A stretch of DNA of 32,952 nucleotides from Gammaproteobacteria bacterium (lineage in GTDB: Bacteria > Pseudomonadota > Gammaproteobacteria > Pseudomonadales > JAUIKI01). The stretch lies in the NCBI GenBank assembly GCA_030430875.1, contig JAUIKI010000001.1, forward strand, positions 1 to 32,952, in the 5' to 3' direction. This document shows positions 4,607 to 32,762 of the stretch, in pieces. Under the pieces are notes generated by a model. It did not search any database and was not told the origin of the DNA. It worked only from the letters and a program-made list of their open reading frames with translations. Every line of letters begins with the position of its first letter. Positions within the stretch are counted from its first letter, which is position 1. Position numbers and translations under genes: made by a program.

Positions 4607-5734
4607 TTATTTAATTTCGAGTGTAATCTCATCAGTTAAGAACTTATGTATATTCTCAAAAAAATAGACATAAAATGGAGCCATTTCTACATGCTTAAGT
4701 TGTGCATGATATTGATACGATTTTTCACCAAGTGTATCAACACAGCCATTGAATAATAAAACCTGTCTATCATGGATTTCGGTTTGATGAAAAATGCCAT
4801 ATCTATTCTTGTTAAATGGCGGTTTGTGGAAGAGTGTGAACCCATTTTTTGATGATGAGATCACCTTTATTTCATCGGTAAGGATATGCATGAAAGGCGA
4901 TATTGTATTTTGACCAAAAATTTCTTCTGCAAGCACAGTAGTTTGAGGGTTTGTCGGTAGCTTTTTAGCGCCATTCATAACAGCAGCTATTTTTTTCTGA
5001 TCAGTGGTGAGTGAAAATAAGCATTCCTCTTGATAGGTTTCAAAGTGATAGGTTTTGTTATCGTCTAAGTCATCAATAATTGCTTTCAGCTGATTAGTCG
5101 CCGAGAAAAGAACTTTTCTTTCGACATTAGACAGAGATTCCCAGTAATCATCCCAAGTAGGGGAGCTTGATGTTTTATCAGCCAGTAAATTTTTTGCCAT
5201 GCGAATTTTTTTGAGATTATGTTTGATCCGTTCAGTTTGATTGCTTTTAATGTCTTTATTAAAAGATTCCTCAGAGATATAAATTAAAAAACTTGTTTGT
5301 TCAGGTAAATATTTGAAATATATGGTATTTGTTTCTCTGAAACTATCTTCAAAAATCACACTATGGTCATCAAAGTAGACGATGTCATAGTCTGTAAGTT
5401 GGCTTTTAAGTCCTTCGATGGCGATTGCAGTGGGATCATCCGTTTGAATGAGTAAGATTTGTGACAGATTTCCATAAGGATGAATATGATTTTCTAGCTC
5501 GATGTTGAATAAAATATTGGGGTTGCCATAAAGTTCTAGTTTATCTAATTGATAGAAAAACATTCTGTCATCATAAGAAGCTTCATAGTGAAATGGCAAA
5601 TATAGTTCAAGATTAGTAACTGTGACCGGGTATGAAACCGTTGGTTTCGCAAAAAATGCGTCAAGCTCAGCTGGATCAAGTTTGACAGTATCAACTGGTT
5701 CATTGTTCACACGCATTTCAATGTTGTTCAGCAA
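4607..5734 (-). CDS. Hypothetical protein with no family I recognise; an orphan inserted between plsB and rsmJ
   Basis: This is a 375-aa uninterrupted ORF. The track start at 5734 is TTG, and an ATG (MRVNNEP...) lies at 5716. There is no signal peptide or TM segment. It is convergent with plsB, with only 6 bp between the two stop codons. Confidence 0.6.
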   Translation of the reverse strand: MLNNIEMRVNNEPVDTVKLDPAELDAFFAKPTVSYPVTVTNLELYLPFHYEASYDDRMFFYQLDKLELYGNPNILFNIELENHIHPYGNLSQILLIQTDDPTAIAIEGLKSQLTDYDIVYFDDHSVIFEDSFRETNTIYFKYLPEQTSFLIYISEESFNKDIKSNQTERIKHNLKKIRMAKNLLADKTSSSPTWDDYWESLSNVERKVLFSATNQLKAIIDDLDDNKTYHFETYQEECLFSLTTDQKKIAAVMNGAKKLPTNPQTTVLAEEIFGQNTISPFMHILTDEIKVISSSKNGFTLFHKPPFNKNRYGIFHQTEIHDRQVLLFNGCVDTLGEKSYQYHAQLKHVEMAPFYVYFFENIHKFLTDEITLEIK

Positions 5735-5992
5735 TTCATTTGTTGGTGTTGTCGATTGTAAACGTTAGCTTATTTTTATGCATAGTGGCTTCTTTTGGAT
5801 AGATTTAAGGAATATGGTGACGTTAGCATTTAAATATGCAGAAAATATTATGCAAGCTATGAATGTTTGAGACATGATGGCAAATAAATTGAGGTTTTTG
5901 CACTAAAACAACAGTGATAAAAAATTAGGTAACATTTTTTTGATGAAGATAAATTTAGGTTCAAATGTCTTGAAAATCTCATACTCTGCTAG

Positions 5993-6055
5993 ATATTCCT
6001 GATAGTTGAGCAATATTCCTGAATTCCAGCAAAATATTCCTGAGTATTCTATTTG
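5993..6055 (+). promoter_or_regulatory. Three phased direct repeats of ATATTCCTGA plus a TATTCTATTTG box (putative transcription-factor operator array)
   Basis: The copies lie at 5993-6002, 6013-6022 and 6034-6043, spaced 20 and 21 bp apart, and the spacers are unrelated. The box is at 6045-6055. The same architecture occurs at 28160-28200. Confidence 0.5.
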
Positions 6056-6059
6056 GCTA

Positions 6060-6170
6060 TCATAGTAATTCGACGTATAGTAATGTCATCGAGGATGTGG
6101 CGACAATGTTGATAAAATCTTTGAGCAGTTCTCTCCCTTAGCCGTGCACTTAGGTGTGCGGCTTTTTATA
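6060..6170 (+). ncRNA. Candidate small RNA (orphan transcription unit; TSS not determinable from sequence)
   Basis: The + strand carries a strong intrinsic terminator at 6140-6168. No + strand ORF precedes it; the longest is a 9-codon ATG frame at 6083. Both flanking genes are on the minus strand. The repeat array and AT-rich -10-like hexamers (TATCAT at 6058, TAGTAAT at 6063) lie just upstream. Confidence 0.35.
6140..6168 (+). terminator. Rho-independent terminator, oriented on the + strand
   Basis: The stem is AGCCGTGCAC / GTGTGCGGCT, 10 bp including two G-U pairs, with a TTAG loop. It is followed by TTTTTATATTTT. The minus-strand reading lacks a U-tract. Confidence 0.7.
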
Positions 6171-6269
6171 TTTTCCCATTTGTGACATGTCATTTAACGA
6201 TCAGTTAACTACCAGTTTTCTGAGAAAATCTATTTGCTGTGTATCAATAGTTATCTCAAAAGTCTCTTG

Positions 6270-7028
6270 TTATGAATATGGCAGATAAATATCAAATCGT
6301 GTTGTTTTACCATAGAGCTGAAAATTAGGTTTTTCATCAATTGCGAGCGGTGCTTTTTTCGGGCGTTTTATTACTACACGTTTTTTCGCGATGCTTCTTC
6401 CTGATTGAATCAGTGATTGAATGGCTTGATCGGCTCCTAAAAAATGTTTCAGGTACTGCATGTCTTTGTTTACAAGCGCCGATTTTTTGGTATCAGGAAA
6501 CATGGGGTCAATGTAGACGACATCAGGGCAGTTGTGTGCTTCTAAGAGGGTTGGCAGATAATCGGTAGAATCAGCATGAACCAATGTCATCCGACTGATG
6601 ATTGGTTCAAATTCAGGATTGGCAGATGCTCGTGTGAATGCATCGTCAAGAAGCGCAAATATGACTGATGAGCGTTCAATTAAGGTAACCTTGCAGCCAA
6701 GACTTGCAAGAATAAAGCTATCTTTGCCAAACCCTGCAGTGGTATCGAGGATGTTTGGTTTGTCTGAGGACCTAATGCCTATGGCTTTTGCCAAGGACTG
6801 GTTTAAACCACCGCCATGCAAGCGGCGATACTGAAGTTGCTTATCACTAAAGTCAATGATCAGCTTACTACCATCAGGTTGTTGCAGAGCCAGTCCTTCT
6901 GTATCGAGACTTAGCCAGAAATCTTGGCGTGGCGTGCCGGTTTTTTGTGATAGGCAGCTGAACTCAAAACGATCTGCTAATCGGTTTGCTTCCTCCAAAA
7001 AATGATCGGATGCTGGAATAATTTGCAC
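6270..7028 (-). CDS. rsmJ: 16S rRNA (guanine1516-N2)-methyltransferase
   Basis: The 252-aa ORF has blocks I recall from E. coli RsmJ/YhiQ: LDTTAGFGKDSFILASLGCKVTLIERS, VVYIDPMFP..KKSALVNKDM and KRVVIKRPKKAP. Confidence 0.85.
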   Translation of the reverse strand: MQIIPASDHFLEEANRLADRFEFSCLSQKTGTPRQDFWLSLDTEGLALQQPDGSKLIIDFSDKQLQYRRLHGGGLNQSLAKAIGIRSSDKPNILDTTAGFGKDSFILASLGCKVTLIERSSVIFALLDDAFTRASANPEFEPIISRMTLVHADSTDYLPTLLEAHNCPDVVYIDPMFPDTKKSALVNKDMQYLKHFLGADQAIQSLIQSGRSIAKKRVVIKRPKKAPLAIDEKPNFQLYGKTTRFDIYLPYS

Positions 7029-8948: not shown

Positions 8949-9234
8949 AGTGATTTCATATTGAGTTAGATTGATGAATAGTATGTAATGAGATTCCTGT
9001 AGCAAAGTTATAACGATAAAAAATGGTTGAAAAGTGCCGGTCTTGTGCATTAGGTTGGCTATTTTTTCTGATTTTTTCTTTCACTGTCCTTTACTGCAAA
9101 TGTCTCAGTTTGATTACATTAGCTTTCAAGAAGTTCTGCATTTTATCGCTTATTTTTGCGGAAATTTTGATTTTTAAGTCAAAATTCACTAGAAATGGCG
9201 TAAATGGAAAATTATCAAGCTGATAAGCTGAAAG

Positions 9235-26702: not shown

Positions 26703-27389
26703 CTAAAAACTTGCCCTACGAGAGACATGAGAATTATGAAAACTCATTGCGGAGATCAACAAACCACCCAAAGAAAATAATTGCACTCCAACCCAGACTA
26801 ACCAATGATTGACTGTGCGTTTCACTTGTTTAGTTTCAAGCAATTCAAATTTCCGGGTTTCACCATCTTGGAACTTTTCAGTTTTAATCCCCAAATTTTC
26901 GTAGCTGACAAAAAAAGTTCCATCTCCATTACCACCATAGATATTTAGCGCATTATCTCTATTGTCACTAAAATAAACATAGGCTGTTTCTGGGAAAAAA
27001 ATATTAAATTGCCCAATAGCTATGCATAAAACACCTGAAAACATTAATGCGACTAACAGCAATAAATATTGCTTCTTTTTATGTGTTTGATTTTTTTTCA
27101 GATCAAACGCACCATAATTCTCAATGGCGATGTGCTTGAAATATTTGCGAATGATCAGAGGGTCTAAACCGACTAATAGCTCAGTTCGATTAAGTTTAAA
27201 AACAGCTGCAATTCGATCAAAAACTTCAACCGATGGAATGGCTTTATCTTTTTCCAATTTAGAGAGATAAGAGGCATCGATTTTAAGACTCTCAGCAAGC
27301 TCTGCTTGGGTATATTGTTTATCAAGACGCAGCGTTCTGAGTTTTTCTCCGAAACTAATAAATGTACTTTGATTGACGACTGATAACAT
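26703..27389 (-). CDS. Membrane-anchored XRE-family HTH regulator (HTH, TM, roughly 65-aa extracytoplasmic segment, TM)
   Basis: The 228-aa ORF has the HTH FGEKLRTLRLDKQYTQAELAESLKIDASYLSKLEKDKAIPSVEVFDRIAAVF. Hydrophobic spans are YLLLLVALMFSGVLCIAIGQF and HWLVWVGVQLFSLGGLLISAMSF. It starts 3 nt after its paralog. Confidence 0.75.
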   Translation of the reverse strand: MLSVVNQSTFISFGEKLRTLRLDKQYTQAELAESLKIDASYLSKLEKDKAIPSVEVFDRIAAVFKLNRTELLVGLDPLIIRKYFKHIAIENYGAFDLKKNQTHKKKQYLLLLVALMFSGVLCIAIGQFNIFFPETAYVYFSDNRDNALNIYGGNGDGTFFVSYENLGIKTEKFQDGETRKFELLETKQVKRTVNHWLVWVGVQLFSLGGLLISAMSFHNSHVSRRASF

Positions 27390-27392
27390 ATT

Positions 27393-28064
27393 TTATTCCT
27401 CAGCCCCGATCAAAGAATCCTTGCCATCAATTCGGTATATAACTTTCACATAGCAAAAATACCCTATTCCCATCAACATCAATATGCCTCCCATCAATAT
27501 TAGCCAAGGATGGTGACTTTGCTCATATTTTTCCAACAAAAAGAACTCTTTAAAGTCTGCTGTTTTTTTCTCAAGAATTTCTCCGGCGTAATAATCCAGC
27601 TCAATTGTTTCTCCAGTGGATGCAAAACCATATCTAGGCTCCTCATATTTTTCCAACCATTGCTTGGTATAAAAACGTGGACCAGACTGGAGGTAGTGGT
27701 AATGCTGAGTTGGCAGCAACACTCCGCCACTCAAAAGCGCTAAACCGATCCATATCGACACAAGCGCTACCCAAGACCTATGCAGTTTTTGCGCGAGTTT
27801 CTTTAATTGTCGTTCTTTTGCGGAAATACCGATATTGCCAAAATTTTCAGATAAAAAATTTGTATCTACTCCTTCAATCAGCTCCATTAAGCTAATGTTA
27901 TAAATAGTGGCTAATTTTTCTAATATATCAATCGTTGGAATAGCACGATTATTTTCTAGTTTGGATAAGTATGACTGCTCAATATCGCTGTGAAGCGCCA
28001 ATTCTTTTTGAGTCCACTGTGTTGTTGCTCTTAAGGCGCGTAATCTTTCACCTAATTTCATCAT
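27393..28064 (-). CDS. Membrane-anchored XRE-family HTH regulator, paralog of the downstream gene
   Basis: The HTH reads LGERLRALRATTQWTQKELALHSDIEQSYLSKLENNRAIPTIDILEKLATIY. Hydrophobic spans are WVALVSIWIGLALLSGGVLLP and WLILMGGILMLMGIGYFCYV. The track start at 28073 is TTG, and ATGs lie at 28064 and 28061. Confidence 0.75.
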   Translation of the reverse strand: MMKLGERLRALRATTQWTQKELALHSDIEQSYLSKLENNRAIPTIDILEKLATIYNISLMELIEGVDTNFLSENFGNIGISAKERQLKKLAQKLHRSWVALVSIWIGLALLSGGVLLPTQHYHYLQSGPRFYTKQWLEKYEEPRYGFASTGETIELDYYAGEILEKKTADFKEFFLLEKYEQSHHPWLILMGGILMLMGIGYFCYVKVIYRIDGKDSLIGAEE

Positions 28065-28159
28065 GATCAGCAATATTTTTAATGTTAAAAACGCAGTATA
28101 GCGAGTTTCTTTTCTTTCTCAACTCCTTTTAAGTGATTGATAGTTAAGGAAAGGCAGCG

Positions 28160-28200
28160 ATATTCCTCAATAGGCATGATCATTCCTCATATTCTATTTG
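28160..28200 (+). promoter_or_regulatory. Two phased ATTCCTCA repeats plus a TATTCTATTTG box in the divergent XRE / secreted-cluster promoter region
   Basis: ATATTCCTCA is at 28160-28169 and TCATTCCTCA at 28180-28189, 20 bp apart. The identical 11-mer TATTCTATTTG follows at 28190-28200. The layout matches 5993-6055. Confidence 0.45.
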
Positions 28201-28295
28201 TGTTTCTTTGCCACAAACTGAAAATAGGCCACACAGCTTGCAGGACAACTTCAACTTGCAGCTGTATCAACAAATCAACCTAACCGGAGACAGTT

Positions 28296-28763
28296 ATGAA
28301 ACTAAAACACTTGATTGCAATATTAAGTATCACATTAACCACACCACTGGCTGCAAATGAAGTCGTTAAAACAGGAGTGGCCATCCCATTAGATTACACC
28401 GCGCTTTATCTTGTTGATAAAACATTGGCAGATTCAAAAGCTGGTGAAATTGATAAAAAACCTTATTTTGTCAAGTTAGTAGGCCTGAAACCAGGTGAAC
28501 AATATGGCAAGAATGAATCACAACTTTGGGAAGCATTGACTGATTTAGTTCAACTGGGTAGTGGCAACTCAGCAGAAGCAAGCTGTCAGATAGTTAGTAG
28601 TTTATTTCATCATGATGATTATGCTCGTGCAGCTATTTGTTCAATCGATGGTAAAGATCTTGGTGAGCAATTAATTGCAACTGGGTTTTATTCAGTGAAT
28701 CGTGATGAGACTTATGCCAAGGGAATGGATATTGCATTGGCTAAACGAAAAACAAGCGCGTGA
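28296..28763 (+). CDS. Exported staphylococcal-nuclease-like (SNase/thermonuclease fold) protein with a probable 3' frameshift
   Basis: The signal peptide is MKLKHLIAILSITLTTPLAA|NE. SNase-like blocks are LVDKTL..., YFVKLVGLKPGEQYGK and DDYARAAICSIDGKDLGEQLIATGF. The family-typical tail EKQAREKKLGIWS is encoded in a different frame at 28747-28827. Confidence 0.5.
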   Translation: MKLKHLIAILSITLTTPLAANEVVKTGVAIPLDYTALYLVDKTLADSKAGEIDKKPYFVKLVGLKPGEQYGKNESQLWEALTDLVQLGSGNSAEASCQIVSSLFHHDDYARAAICSIDGKDLGEQLIATGFYSVNRDETYAKGMDIALAKRKTSA

Positions 28764-28909
28764 GAAAAAGCTGGGGATTTGGAGTAACGTAGAAGCACCA
28801 TCATCAAGTGGTGTCATTAATCAATGACGACACGCTCTGAGATCTTTGCGCTAAAGACTCAACGATAAAAAATGGTTAAGACATTGATTTTTAATAAGGG
28901 AGAAAACAC

Positions 28910-29410
28910 ATGAAATCAATTGCTCGTTATACCCTGATCAATTTACTGCTGATGATCATGACAACCGTTGTCAATGCGGAAACTGATGCCAATTCTGGTA
29001 TTCCAAACTTGGAACCTGTCGCACTCGTTGCAACGCTTTACACTCAATCCCAAAAGACAGATAACGCGATGTTTTTTGATGAAAATGGTCTTGAGTTGCT
29101 CAAACAATATTTCACTGAAAATCTTGCAGAATTAGTCATTGCAGATCTGAAAGCAACTCAACCAGGAGATTCTGGTCGTTTAGGTTTTGATCCTTTATAT
29201 GCTGCCCAAGATTTTGAAGTAACGAATTTTGCATTGCGATTAGACGCTGTTGAAAACAGTCAGGCAAAAGTCATTGCAACTATTAAGAATTTTGGAGAGA
29301 CAGTGGAAGTAATCTTTTCATTACAACAGCGTGTAGGCCAATGGCGCATTGTAAACATTGAATATCATGAACATGAAGATTTGCTGACAATTCTCACACA
29401 AAGTAAATGA
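28910..29410 (+). CDS. Exported protein, DUF3828/YbjP-like (NTF2-like); family assignment is tentative
   Basis: The signal peptide is MKSIARYTLINLLLMIMTTVVNA|ETD. The motif GFDPLYAAQDFEV...VGQWRIVNIEY resembles my memory of DUF3828. There is a strong SD, GGGAG. Confidence 0.5.
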   Translation: MKSIARYTLINLLLMIMTTVVNAETDANSGIPNLEPVALVATLYTQSQKTDNAMFFDENGLELLKQYFTENLAELVIADLKATQPGDSGRLGFDPLYAAQDFEVTNFALRLDAVENSQAKVIATIKNFGETVEVIFSLQQRVGQWRIVNIEYHEHEDLLTILTQSK

Positions 29411-29479
29411 AACTATTTCATCATATAAATCACGGTCTATTACGGTAATTTATATTTAGAAAACTCACAGGAAAACCAA

Positions 29480-29866
29480 ATGAAAAAATTATTAGCCCTA
29501 TTGTTTATTAGCCCGCTAGGTGTCCCAATAGCATGGTGTCTTTATATGCTTATATCTAGTGGAAGTTTAAAAATTTCTGACATAAGTCTAATTTTTGCAG
29601 GTTATTTAAGTGGATTAATTGGTGCAACAACTCTTGGTGTTCCATTCTATTTTGCTCTCAAGAACTACCATAAAGAACAATCTCTTTGGCTGGTTTTATT
29701 AGGATTCTTGAGTGGCTTTTTAATGGCATTTCCAATGGTGGAGGTTGGTGGACTTGAATTTATTAATTTGACATTGATGGGGGGGGTTTCAGGGTTTACA
29801 GTGGCATTAATCGCTTGGGTTTTAATAAACGTACTTAAGATAAATAAGCCGAGACCTTTGTGCTAA
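29480..29866 (+). CDS. Small integral membrane protein with about 4 TM segments, hypothetical
   Basis: The 128-aa ORF is almost entirely hydrophobic helices. It contains the G8 tract. Confidence 0.6.
   Translation: MKKLLALLFISPLGVPIAWCLYMLISSGSLKISDISLIFAGYLSGLIGATTLGVPFYFALKNYHKEQSLWLVLLGFLSGFLMAFPMVEVGGLEFINLTLMGGVSGFTVALIAWVLINVLKINKPRPLC
29779..29786 (+). repeat. Homopolymeric G8 tract inside a coding sequence
   Basis: I read it directly as ttgatGGGGGGGGtttc, encoding M-G-G-V. It is the only long G/C run I saw in this AT-rich window. Confidence 0.9.
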
Positions 29867-30015
29867 AAATCAATGCAAGAAAAATGAGGAAAAAACTTCA
29901 GATTGAGGCGAAAAATTCAGGTAATAACGAGCTATTAACCATTTTTTATCGTTGTAGTTTTAGTGCAAAAGTCTCAGATTATTATTTCAAATTAAAACAT
30001 TCAAAGGAGCAGATA

Positions 30016-31773
30016 ATGAAACAATATTTACGAGCAATTTCAATCTTCACATTTTTACTGACGTCAGGAGCAGTATTTGCTGAAACGATAATAGTTGACA
30101 CTACGAAAGATAAATTTTCGGATTCTAAAACTGCACAATACAACTGCTTATTAGGCGAATTAAGCCCCGACTGCTCTTTACGTGAAGCTGTGCAGACAGC
30201 CAATGACCTTCCAGGAGATGACACAATCATTTTGGGTGAAGGCACTTATAAACTGACCTTGCATGGCATGGATGAAGAATACAACAAAACAGGTGATTTA
30301 GATATTAAAGACACCCTTACAATCACCGGTATTGCAGCAGAAAAAACATTCATTGATGGTGACCTTGCAGACCGAATTTTTCACCATCATAAAGGTAACT
30401 TAACTTTAAATAAGTTAACACTGATAAACGGGATAATCGTATATTCAAAAACGTTGAATACCTTTGGTACTGGAGGTGCAGCAATACTCAGTAATTTAGT
30501 GGGTAAATTAAGTATCAATCAAGTGATAGTACGAAACAATACAACTGAGTTTACAGATGAAATCTATTGCCAAATCGAAGGCATTCCATTTGAACCAAGC
30601 ATTGGAGAAGGCAATACCATTTTTTATCACGGCAACGATCTTTCCCTCACAGGATCAGCTATTATAAACAATCAATTTACCTGTTTAGGTGAACCTGCCA
30701 ATCATTTCATCTTTGGTAAAGGCTATGCTCTCTTTGCAAAAACAGATAAATTAAGGTTAGAAAATGTCTTGATTGCTAATAATGTAACTGAAGAAAGTGC
30801 TGAAAACAGGCATGCAACTGTACTGCTTGACTGTTATGGACAATCAACCTGTCAACATACTATCGATAAAGTCACTATGAGCCACAATGGTGAGCTAAAT
30901 ATCATGTTTGATTTCAATTTTGAAGAACTTAATGATGTATCGATTAATATTAACGAACTCAAATCTTCTATGGGTAGGGTATTAATCGATGCAATCAACT
31001 TTTCTGAGAATGGTGAACATAACATTGATCTCGTCATTAAAAATAGTTCATTTGAAAATTCGGAGCTCTACGGATTACAATATCAATCTTATGAAAGATA
31101 TGATGATAGCGAGCAAAAAAGTCTGATCATCGTCAATGCATCAATTGAACATTCTACATTCGCCAAAAATGGTATTGGAGTTAAATTATTTAAAAATATA
31201 GAAGATCAAAATTTTTGGTTGCTACGCAATAATACCATTAGTGGAAATACACAAGGTGGTATTGATGTAGGTGGCTTCAATGCATTGGATTTGACTTATA
31301 ACACCATTGCCTTTAATGGTGATCCAAGTAAGGATATAGATGGCGTTAATATTTTTTATGGTAGTTCGGTAACAAATGTCAATCTACTAGGCAATATTAT
31401 CAGCAATCCACAAGGTGGAAAAAGCTGTGCTGGACATACTTACCAAATGTATTCACAAACATACAATCTAGATAGCGATGGAAGTTGTTTATTCTATCAT
31501 CCAGCAGAAGGTGACATAATCGGCTTTGATCCATTATTAAAGTCACTTGCTCATAACGGCGGAAAAACTAAAACTCACGCTTTGAAAATAGGCAGTCCTG
31601 CCATTGATGCCGCTAAGGTTACTGAAAAGGATACTGGCACGGTGTTTGATCAGCGTTATGTTTCGAGAACAGGCAATGGTGTTGGCAATAATCCTGACAT
31701 AGGGTCTTTTGAACTATTTACTCCACCATCTTTGTCTTGCGATATTATCACCTGTGGTGGGCCGGAAAACTAA
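30016..31773 (+). CDS. Secreted right-handed parallel beta-helix protein with an N-terminal CSLREA motif
   Basis: The track start at 29860 (GTG) is over-extended. The ATG at 30016 follows AAGGAG and gives the signal peptide MKQYLRAISIFTFLLTSGAVFA|ETI. A literal CSLREAVQTANDLPGDDTIILGEGTY is present, followed by many N/G/I-rich beta-helix-like repeats. The C-terminus reads FDQRYVSR...NPDIGSFE. Confidence 0.75.
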   Translation: MKQYLRAISIFTFLLTSGAVFAETIIVDTTKDKFSDSKTAQYNCLLGELSPDCSLREAVQTANDLPGDDTIILGEGTYKLTLHGMDEEYNKTGDLDIKDTLTITGIAAEKTFIDGDLADRIFHHHKGNLTLNKLTLINGIIVYSKTLNTFGTGGAAILSNLVGKLSINQVIVRNNTTEFTDEIYCQIEGIPFEPSIGEGNTIFYHGNDLSLTGSAIINNQFTCLGEPANHFIFGKGYALFAKTDKLRLENVLIANNVTEESAENRHATVLLDCYGQSTCQHTIDKVTMSHNGELNIMFDFNFEELNDVSININELKSSMGRVLIDAINFSENGEHNIDLVIKNSSFENSELYGLQYQSYERYDDSEQKSLIIVNASIEHSTFAKNGIGVKLFKNIEDQNFWLLRNNTISGNTQGGIDVGGFNALDLTYNTIAFNGDPSKDIDGVNIFYGSSVTNVNLLGNIISNPQGGKSCAGHTYQMYSQTYNLDSDGSCLFYHPAEGDIIGFDPLLKSLAHNGGKTKTHALKIGSPAIDAAKVTEKDTGTVFDQRYVSRTGNGVGNNPDIGSFELFTPPSLSCDIITCGGPEN

Positions 31774-32321: not shown

Positions 32322-32762
32322 TTATCGATACTCTAAACTAATAATTTCTTCTAACCCTGCAATGTGTATTTGAGGGTTATGTTTAACTCGGACTTCCTTT
32401 GTGCCTAATGGTAATTGTTTGTTAAGAGCTATAGACGTATTGCTAAATAATAAAGAAAGCCAGTTTGTTTCATTTGTAGAATTACAAAGTCTCCAAATAA
32501 CAACATTTATTTTTTCATCATTTTCTTTTTCCAAAGTAGTTGACTTAAGCGTAACTTGTTCTTCTGGAGACCCACTGAACAAGGTTATTCCTGAGAGCAA
32601 ATTTGATTGTTTCGTATCTGACGCTTGCCATCCATCAGGGATAGAGAGCTTTTCTTGCTTAGTATTAATGTCAGATGGCAAAGTCAATTCTTTCCATTTG
32701 TCACTCGCTTGTAATGATATCGGTAAGATTAAAAATAAGATTAATAGGCTTTTAAATTTCAT
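32322..32762 (-). CDS. Exported hypothetical protein
   Basis: The 146-aa ORF has the signal peptide MKFKSLLILFLILPISLQA|SDK. I recognise no family. Confidence 0.55.
   Translation of the reverse strand: MKFKSLLILFLILPISLQASDKWKELTLPSDINTKQEKLSIPDGWQASDTKQSNLLSGITLFSGSPEEQVTLKSTTLEKENDEKINVVIWRLCNSTNETNWLSLLFSNTSIALNKQLPLGTKEVRVKHNPQIHIAGLEEIISLEYR

Follow-up and report, generated by a model that had tools for sequence, protein, structure and literature searches.

The window analysed here is the complete 32,952-bp contig JAUIKI010000001.1 (C284 below) of a gammaproteobacterial metagenome-assembled genome (MAG). Between positions 26703 and 31773 it carries two adjacent genes for membrane-anchored transcription regulators of the XRE type, XRE2 and XRE1, and, divergent from them, four genes on the plus strand. 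The 222-bp spacer between the two groups holds a phased array of ATATTCCTSA repeats, and a second copy of the array lies 22 kb away, immediately before a unit without an open reading frame (ORF). The original prediction combined these features into a self-contained module in which membrane sensor-regulators and a shared phased operator govern a four-gene exported cluster and a remote small RNA (sRNA). The membrane regulators and the shared operator were both confirmed, but the self-contained character was not, as motif and profile scans located the array at at least 10 promoters on at least nine contigs of the MAG, and the regulators form part of a set of at least six paralogues.

The XRE-TM regulators and the associated operator arrays

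XRE2 and XRE1 are paralogues with 27% identity, separated by 3 nt, and probably form one operon, before which a promoter is predicted (Table). Both match the Pfam families HTH_3/HTH_19 over residues 8-70 with E values of 1e-11 to 3e-13 (2.9e-13 for HTH_19 in XRE2), and two hydrophobic segments are found in XRE1 by direct reading of its sequence. In an AlphaFold2 (AF2) model of XRE2, built from a 37-sequence alignment (pLDDT 86), a five-helix helix-turn-helix (HTH) domain leads into a long helix (residues 83-119), a small beta domain (122-186) and another long helix (189-224). The beta domain is confidently modelled between the two transmembrane (TM) helices and carries the family-conserved motifs Y.Y.S.G..GE and G..R.Y. 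In Foldseek searches with this model the HTH alone gave matches, to DdrO, SinR, C.AhdI, ClgR and 434 Cro, while neither a fold match nor a ligand clue was obtained for the periplasmic domain. By Pfam and AF2, a cytoplasmic DNA-binding domain and a membrane anchor are joined in one polypeptide, as in transmembrane transcription regulators; the family is referred to here as XRE-TM.

The paralogues comprise the pair in the window, a second tandem pair on contig C162 and single genes on C296 and C256, the C296 protein being a long form of 392 aa. Throughout the family, the paralogues included, the recognition-helix motif (I/V)xQSYLSKLE hardly varies. In a FastTree tree the paralogues sit on long branches, and orthology between the two tandem pairs is not reliable. 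Upstream of the long paralogue, at C296:3560-3640, another direct repeat, TTCAT(T)GAACTCAATG, occurs in two copies about 43 bp apart and may be a distinct operator.

In the divergent spacer ATATTCCTCA at 28160 is followed by TCATTCCTCA at 28180 and then directly by TATTCTATTTG; in the remote array exact copies of ATATTCCTGA at 5993, 6013 and 6034 precede the same TATTCTATTTG box. With up to one mismatch allowed, the 10-mer was counted 16 times, against 5.5 +/- 2.1 in shuffles. In both arrays the proximal site abuts the -10 hexamer, as it does in the conserved XRE-TM promoter, and is preceded at a distance of two helical turns by the next site. The junctions read TATTCCTGA-g-TATTCT and TCATTCCTCA-TATTCT, against a consensus of TATTCCTGA-TATGAT.

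The link between the motif and the regulator family was seen in other genomes. An alignment of the six paralogues was used to fetch 80 homologue loci of about 27-40% identity, hosted by Kangiella, Thalassotalea, Colwellia, Marinicella, Cellvibrio, Rheinheimera, Pseudoalteromonas, Alteromonas, Microbulbifer and many MAGs. Two gene-oriented TATTC[ACT] sites spaced 19-23 bp apart were found within 220 nt upstream of the regulator at 46 of these loci, the reverse-oriented pair at one, and the background in the same loci was 0.001 per 220 nt. The promoters of 29 homologues align without gaps to AtATTC-N14-ATATTCAtCT-N3-TATTCCTGaTATGAT-N5-AAGAAT. A strict core, ATATTCATCT-N2-4-TATTCYTG, stands upstream of 13 of the 80 homologues and occurs twice elsewhere in 1.1 Mb of flanking sequence; a class-wide sample of 400 other genomes did not contain it. 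Across 11 family-bearing genomes, complete or draft, three matches to the strict array pattern are XRE-TM promoters; none of the remaining five precedes a plausible gene start, and these appear to have arisen by chance or within coding sequence. No neighbouring gene was conserved around the 80 loci beyond genus-level synteny, and the FAD oxidase, TM134 and STY0301 proteins of the window were absent from them. The motif therefore tracks the regulator gene through many families without any other conserved partner, which is the signature of an autoregulatory operator. These comparisons support regarding the phased repeats as a true cis-element linked to the XRE-TM family. Judged by its homologues, the family is widespread in marine Gammaproteobacteria and uncharacterised; a full-text literature search found no description of it or of its operator.

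Within the MAG, arrays of this type (Table) adjoin XRE-TM genes at two of the four paralogue loci, C284 and C256. Array promoters are strongly enriched for exported-protein genes: the first downstream gene passes a signal-peptide heuristic, crude and applied here to a small sample, in 7 of 8 cases, compared with 15.7% of all ORFs (binomial probability about 2e-5). The three paralogous units on C228 and C293 share a conserved 5' leader of about 125 nt with a CGCATC...GATGCG hairpin, and each leads into a different secreted peptide, cysteine-rich and 58-70 aa long. Isolated exact 10-mers elsewhere are mostly intragenic, where they encode Asp-Ile-Pro-Asp/Glu, and were counted as background. Given the enrichment, a regulon of envelope, surface or secreted proteins controlled by a transmembrane sensor, close to the earlier suggestion, is reasonable. 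The idea of secreted or surface proteins has gained support, the local arrangement has not: the regulon appears dispersed, and six sensors are present. On C256 an ORF-free stretch of about 300 nt comes after the array, then a miniature inverted-repeat transposable element (MITE) and then an operon for an extracytoplasmic function (ECF) sigma factor and an anti-sigma-like protein.

Table. Coordinates of the features in the window (contig C284) and of the operator arrays on other contigs of the MAG (TIR, terminal inverted repeat).
Feature	Position	Strand	Description
Operator array	5993-6055	+	3 x ATATTCCTGA, spacing 20 and 21, plus TATTCTATTTG
ORF-less unit	6057-6172	+	candidate sRNA, ~115 nt; intrinsic terminator
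XRE1	26703-27389	-	XRE2 paralogue of the same architecture; Pfam HTH_19 E 7e-12
XRE2	27393-28073	-	HTH 1-70, TM1 ~95-119, periplasmic beta domain 122-186, TM2 189-215
XRE operon promoter (predicted)	28095-28122	-	sigma-70-like, TTGAGA-16-TATACT; consensus scan, 10/12 matches
Operator array	28160-28200	+	ATATTCCTCA-N10-TCATTCCTCA abutting TATTCT (-10) and ATTTG; faces SNase-like gene
SNase-like exported protein gene	28296-28827	+	ORF stop 28763; +1 frame after A5 run (~28745-28752) to stop 28825-28827
Solo MITE end	28836-28880	+	TIR plus ~25 nt, between SNase-like and DUF3828 genes, 30 nt before DUF3828 start
DUF3828 exported protein	28910-29410	+	Pfam PF12883 E 8.4e-7, 29.7 bits (cut-off 26), profile 6-123 of 125
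4-TM membrane protein	29480-29866	+	four hydrophobic segments; last 6 codons and stop within MITE
Complete short MITE	29851-29985	-	both TIRs; blastn to 160-bp family
CSLREA / choice-of-anchor-Q secreted beta-helix-type protein	30016-31773	+	NCBIfam TIGR04214 27.9 bits, NF041518 58.9 bits (cut-offs 25, 25)
Array on C15			nearly identical to canonical promoter; precedes signal-peptide ORF
Array on C76			directly before second CSLREA/beta-helix paralogue
Array on C135			at contig end
Array on C228	~6330-6460 (unit)	-	ATATTCATCTAGGTATTCTTG array; paralogous unit
Array on C235			before secreted BTRD1-repeat protein
Array on C256	3540-3625	+	five ATATTC half-sites divergent from XRE-TM paralogue; toward ECF-sigma operon
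Array on C293	~1170-1300 (unit)	+	ATATTCATCTAGGTATTCTTG array; paralogous unit
Array on C293	~2800-2930 (unit)	+	ATATTCATCTAGGTATTCTTG array; paralogous unit
Array on C301			possible array

The four-gene cluster, the ORF-less unit and the MITE insertions

The four genes that follow the spacer array share one orientation, as had been noted, while the gaps between them, described as short, measure 146, 69 and 149 nt. No strong plus-strand terminator was found between them. All four products are exported or membrane proteins, in agreement with the original prediction. The first ORF (28296-28763) begins with a signal peptide and has no family match as it stands. Read in the +1 frame, it continues as ...KQAREKKLGIWSNVEAPSSSGVINQ* to 28827 and gains KQAREKKLGIWS, a motif characteristic of the SNase C-terminus. 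The sequence read through the frameshift matches Pfam SNase (PF00565) with E 1.1e-3 and 19.8 bits, below the cut-off of 21 bits and over the C-terminal half only, and a thermonuclease structure with E 1.1. The SNase assignment proposed earlier thus finds support only in the frameshift-read sequence and not in the ORF itself. With D21, R35, D40, E43 and R87 as the catalytic and Ca-binding reference residues (S. aureus numbering), the R87 equivalent is an arginine (...DDYAR...), the N-terminal half could not be aligned by HMMER, and substitutions of lysine for aspartate or arginine are apparent by eye only. The ORF has no homologue but itself among 5.8e9 and 1.84e9 proteins, a sequence search of the PDB returned noise only, and a single-sequence AF2 model (pLDDT 43) was unusable. 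SNase ancestry of this gene is plausible from the recovered C-terminal motif.

The second gene encodes a DUF3828 protein, an assignment that holds above the Pfam cut-off, with a signal peptide found by direct reading and by the heuristic. Of 300 further genomes drawn from the order, 299 lack a DUF3828-like protein, and the remaining one gave a marginal match. The third product has the four hydrophobic segments expected of the 4-TM protein; a G8 homopolymer inside its gene (29779-29786) could be a site of slipped-strand variation or a source of assembly error. The identity of the fourth product as a CSLREA protein was upheld by the NCBIfam matches, and its start was moved from the GTG at 29860 to the signal-peptide methionine at 30016 (MKQYL...). 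Its identity to the C76 paralogue, for which Pfam gives a Beta_helix match, is 30%. CSLREA relatives were absent from 10 of the 11 XRE-TM genomes. A CSLREA protein of A. baumannii is a candidate substrate of the type II secretion system (PMC9245377), which fits the exported theme.

The cluster has been invaded by a MITE family with a consensus of about 160 bp and the TIR TGAGACCATTGCATTAAAA. The elements are short and non-coding; at least 45 were counted across 1.7 Mb, frequently where contigs end. A 40-nt repeat of the window, present at 5883, 8989 and 28836 and inverted at 29935-29983, is the end of this MITE, and its candidacy as a promoter, sigma-factor site or second operator was accordingly rejected. 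The window holds three solo ends (5883-5925, 8989-9028 and 28836-28880) and the complete copy, so that MITE sequence occupies two of the three intergenic gaps in the cluster. The plus-strand RNA of the complete copy folds into a TIR-closed hairpin (-31.4 kcal/mol, z -2.7) just before the ribosome-binding site (RBS) of the CSLREA gene. The 4-TM ORF takes its final six codons (KPRPLC) and its stop, at 29846-29866, from this same copy, and the insertion has therefore replaced or created the 3' end of that gene. The DUF3828 and 4-TM genes lie between the solo end at 28836 and the complete MITE, which are inverted relative to each other; no target-site duplication was evident. The frameshift and the MITE insertions make the operon integrity of the four genes doubtful. 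From their sequences, the four genes are most likely fast-evolving, partly decayed, lineage-specific cargo and not demonstrably an operon.

The remote ORF-less unit with its own copy of the array was confirmed, and it ends in an intrinsic terminator. A promoter-like -10 (TATTCT) lies at 6045-6050, the unit contains only ORFs of 9-11 codons by direct reading, and the terminator at about 6140-6172 consists of a 10-bp GC-rich stem (6140-6163) and a U run. The unit thus has the anatomy of an sRNA, and it is probably one. Rfam gave nothing above noise over the whole window or in a permissive scan of 5740-6270, and the MAG contains no paralogue of the unit. A single-stranded C/U-rich stretch just 5' of the terminator can pair with the RBS of the DUF3828 gene. 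This pairing ranks 35th among 1639 translation-initiation regions, behind those of 34 other genes; a specific interaction was rejected in favour of generic anti-Shine-Dalgarno complementarity. A 375-aa ORF (4607-5734, minus strand) without a Pfam family separates plsB from the sRNA unit, and a single 9/10 copy of the operator 10-mer is found about 70 nt upstream of it (5806-5815, minus strand).

The remainder of the contig is ordinary gammaproteobacterial chromosome, with plsB, rsmJ, hslUV, ftsN, argS, priA, spoT and genes for an ABC-F protein and malic enzyme. At its far end, 32322-32762 on the minus strand encodes a secreted STY0301-family protein (NCBIfam E 4e-15) that also has a weak GapS4b-like match, and this gene adjoins a 134-aa multi-TM ORF at the contig end. 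The MAG (1.71 Mb, 306 contigs, 38.6% GC) is the sole representative of its own GTDB family, and no close relative of it was found in the collections searched.

A proposed exoprotein regulon and its alternatives

The window probably contains two nodes of a dispersed, lineage-specific exoprotein regulon under the membrane-anchored XRE family. In this reading XRE1 and XRE2 would act as one-component transmembrane transcription regulators, in which a cytoplasmic HTH is tethered to the inner membrane by two helices and the small periplasmic beta domain bracketed by them is the presumed sensor. The most likely reading of the footprints is that XRE-TM proteins bind ATATTC(C/A)T half-sites from the membrane. 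The half-sites span -60 to -14, taking in the -35 region and the spacer up to the edge of the -10, and the canonical autoregulatory promoter has an inverted AAGAAT at +1 as well. From this placement over the promoter we infer, with a slight preference, repression relieved by a periplasmic signal over activation; the poor -35 hexamers would also allow class-II-type activation. In this MAG the family appears to have grown while the array spread to further promoters, nearly all of them before genes for signal-peptide proteins. The regulon would then include the SNase-like gene, the second CSLREA protein, the three small cysteine-rich secreted peptides, the BTRD1-repeat protein and the probable sRNA, whose expression from its array promoter is presumed. 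Going a step further, it is almost as likely as not that this widely distributed, previously undescribed family has diversified in this lineage into several sensors converging on one operator type, which would form a multi-input secretome switch with small cysteine-rich peptides, beta-helix proteins and a regulatory RNA among its outputs.

Several points weigh against the proposed regulon. The array in the spacer faces away from the XRE operon, unlike the arrays of the homologues, and the paralogue loci on C162 and C296 are without clear arrays. XRE dimers usually bind inverted repeats, and direct repeats of 20-21 bp resemble LytTR operators; one LytTR gene is present in the MAG. The enrichment for exported proteins was obtained with the crude heuristic and few promoters, and the MAG is about 75% complete and split into its 306 contigs.

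A self-contained module at 26703-31773, in which the XRE pair senses a signal and controls a single four-gene envelope operon with the sRNA as a dedicated accessory, is unlikely. The genes are adjacent and divergent and share an array, their products are all exported or membrane proteins, they are not separated by any strong plus-strand terminator, and the C/U-rich stretch of the sRNA can pair with the DUF3828 RBS. However, the four genes are ORFans or rare, and none of their products is encoded near any of the 80 homologue loci; the expected co-conservation of XRE-TM genes with CSLREA, SNase-like and DUF3828 genes thus came out negative as far as these loci and the sampled genomes allow. In a MAG without close relatives, such missing co-conservation is weak evidence against local co-function. 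Furthermore, the SNase-like gene is frameshifted, MITE sequence fills two gaps and places a hairpin of -31 kcal/mol before the CSLREA gene, the same array serves at least eight other promoters, and the anti-Shine-Dalgarno pairing is generic.

The main rival to binding by XRE-TM proteins, namely that the arrays are bound by another, soluble regulator, such as the single LytTR-type response regulator, with the XRE-TM genes as mere members of its regulon, is distinctly unlikely. LytTR operators, as bound by AgrA, ComE and BtsR, are typically 9-bp direct repeats about 21 bp apart, and a 10-mer recurring every 20-21 bp upstream of or overlapping the -35 has a similar geometry. The MAG carries its LytTR gene on C133, and all 11 XRE-TM genomes tested have LytTR genes, so gene absence does not decide the matter. 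Nevertheless, no array lies near the LytTR gene of the MAG, and array number here tracks the expansion of XRE-TM paralogues and not LytTR genes. Outside this MAG the strict array occurs almost exclusively at the XRE-TM gene itself, which is the signature of autoregulation and not of a broader regulon. Among XRE proteins, those of the SinR type are known to accept half-sites in either direct or inverted arrangement. That the repeats are non-functional, being local tandem duplications or mobile-element debris with a coincidental similarity of the two sites, is hardly credible: the genome is repeat-rich with more than 45 MITE copies, and the C76 and C135 arrays look like local 21-bp tandem duplications, yet the half-site array is conserved upstream of orthologous regulators in many genera, is absent from the 400 other genomes, and is always intergenic, gene-oriented and abutting a -10-like hexamer.

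The XRE-type family has a phylogenetically footprinted operator, and its DNA binding, signal and regulon are directly testable in cultured hosts, namely Kangiella, Colwellia, Thalassotalea and Pseudoalteromonas. In the uncultured lineage itself, the array would serve as a computational tag for otherwise unannotatable secreted ORFans and a candidate sRNA.

Comparison with known systems

Among one-component regulators tethered to the membrane, only the ToxR/CadC-type proteins and BcrR have been studied well. At the level of the operator, the arrays are like those of LytTR proteins (AgrA, ComE, BtsR) in having direct repeats of 9-10 bp with a periodicity of about 21 bp just upstream of the -10; the half-site sequence is different, and the motif follows XRE-TM and not LytTR genes. 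HigX of Caulobacter, a membrane LytTR protein, is unrelated. The HTH fold is held in common with SinR and the phage 434 repressors (Foldseek TM-score to target 0.84-0.93). The half-site of SinR is 7 bp long and is bound in both direct and inverted arrangements overlapping promoters, and the array can be likened to these, whereas SinR and the phage repressors are soluble and are controlled by antagonist proteins or by cleavage. ToxR, TcpP and CadC share the membrane-tethered DNA-binding domain with the XRE-TM proteins; they also have a periplasmic sensor, direct repeats near the -35 of target promoters and exported or surface proteins under their control, as is presumed for XRE-TM. They differ in their winged-helix OmpR-type domain, their single TM helix and, often, a partner (ToxS, TcpH), while no partner gene is evident for XRE-TM.

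The closest parallel in domain type is BcrR, the bacitracin sensor of Enterococcus faecalis, which is counted among the transmembrane transcription regulators (PMC10269533). Like XRE1 and XRE2, BcrR joins an N-terminal XRE HTH to a membrane anchor in one polypeptide. It has a promoter target adjoining its own gene and works without a kinase or a partner response regulator, as the XRE pair presumably does. No sequence relationship was seen between XRE-TM and BcrR beyond the HTH, and membership of the BcrR family was rejected on account of the two TM helices, the exported ORFan neighbours and the missing ABC transporter. The anchor of BcrR consists of four C-terminal TM helices, a periplasmic domain is missing, the binding sites are inverted repeats and the target is one adjacent ABC-transporter operon. 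In contrast, in the regulators described here two TM helices enclose a conserved beta domain of about 65 aa, the genes are tandem paralogues beside direct-repeat arrays, and the motif is spread over ten or more promoters.

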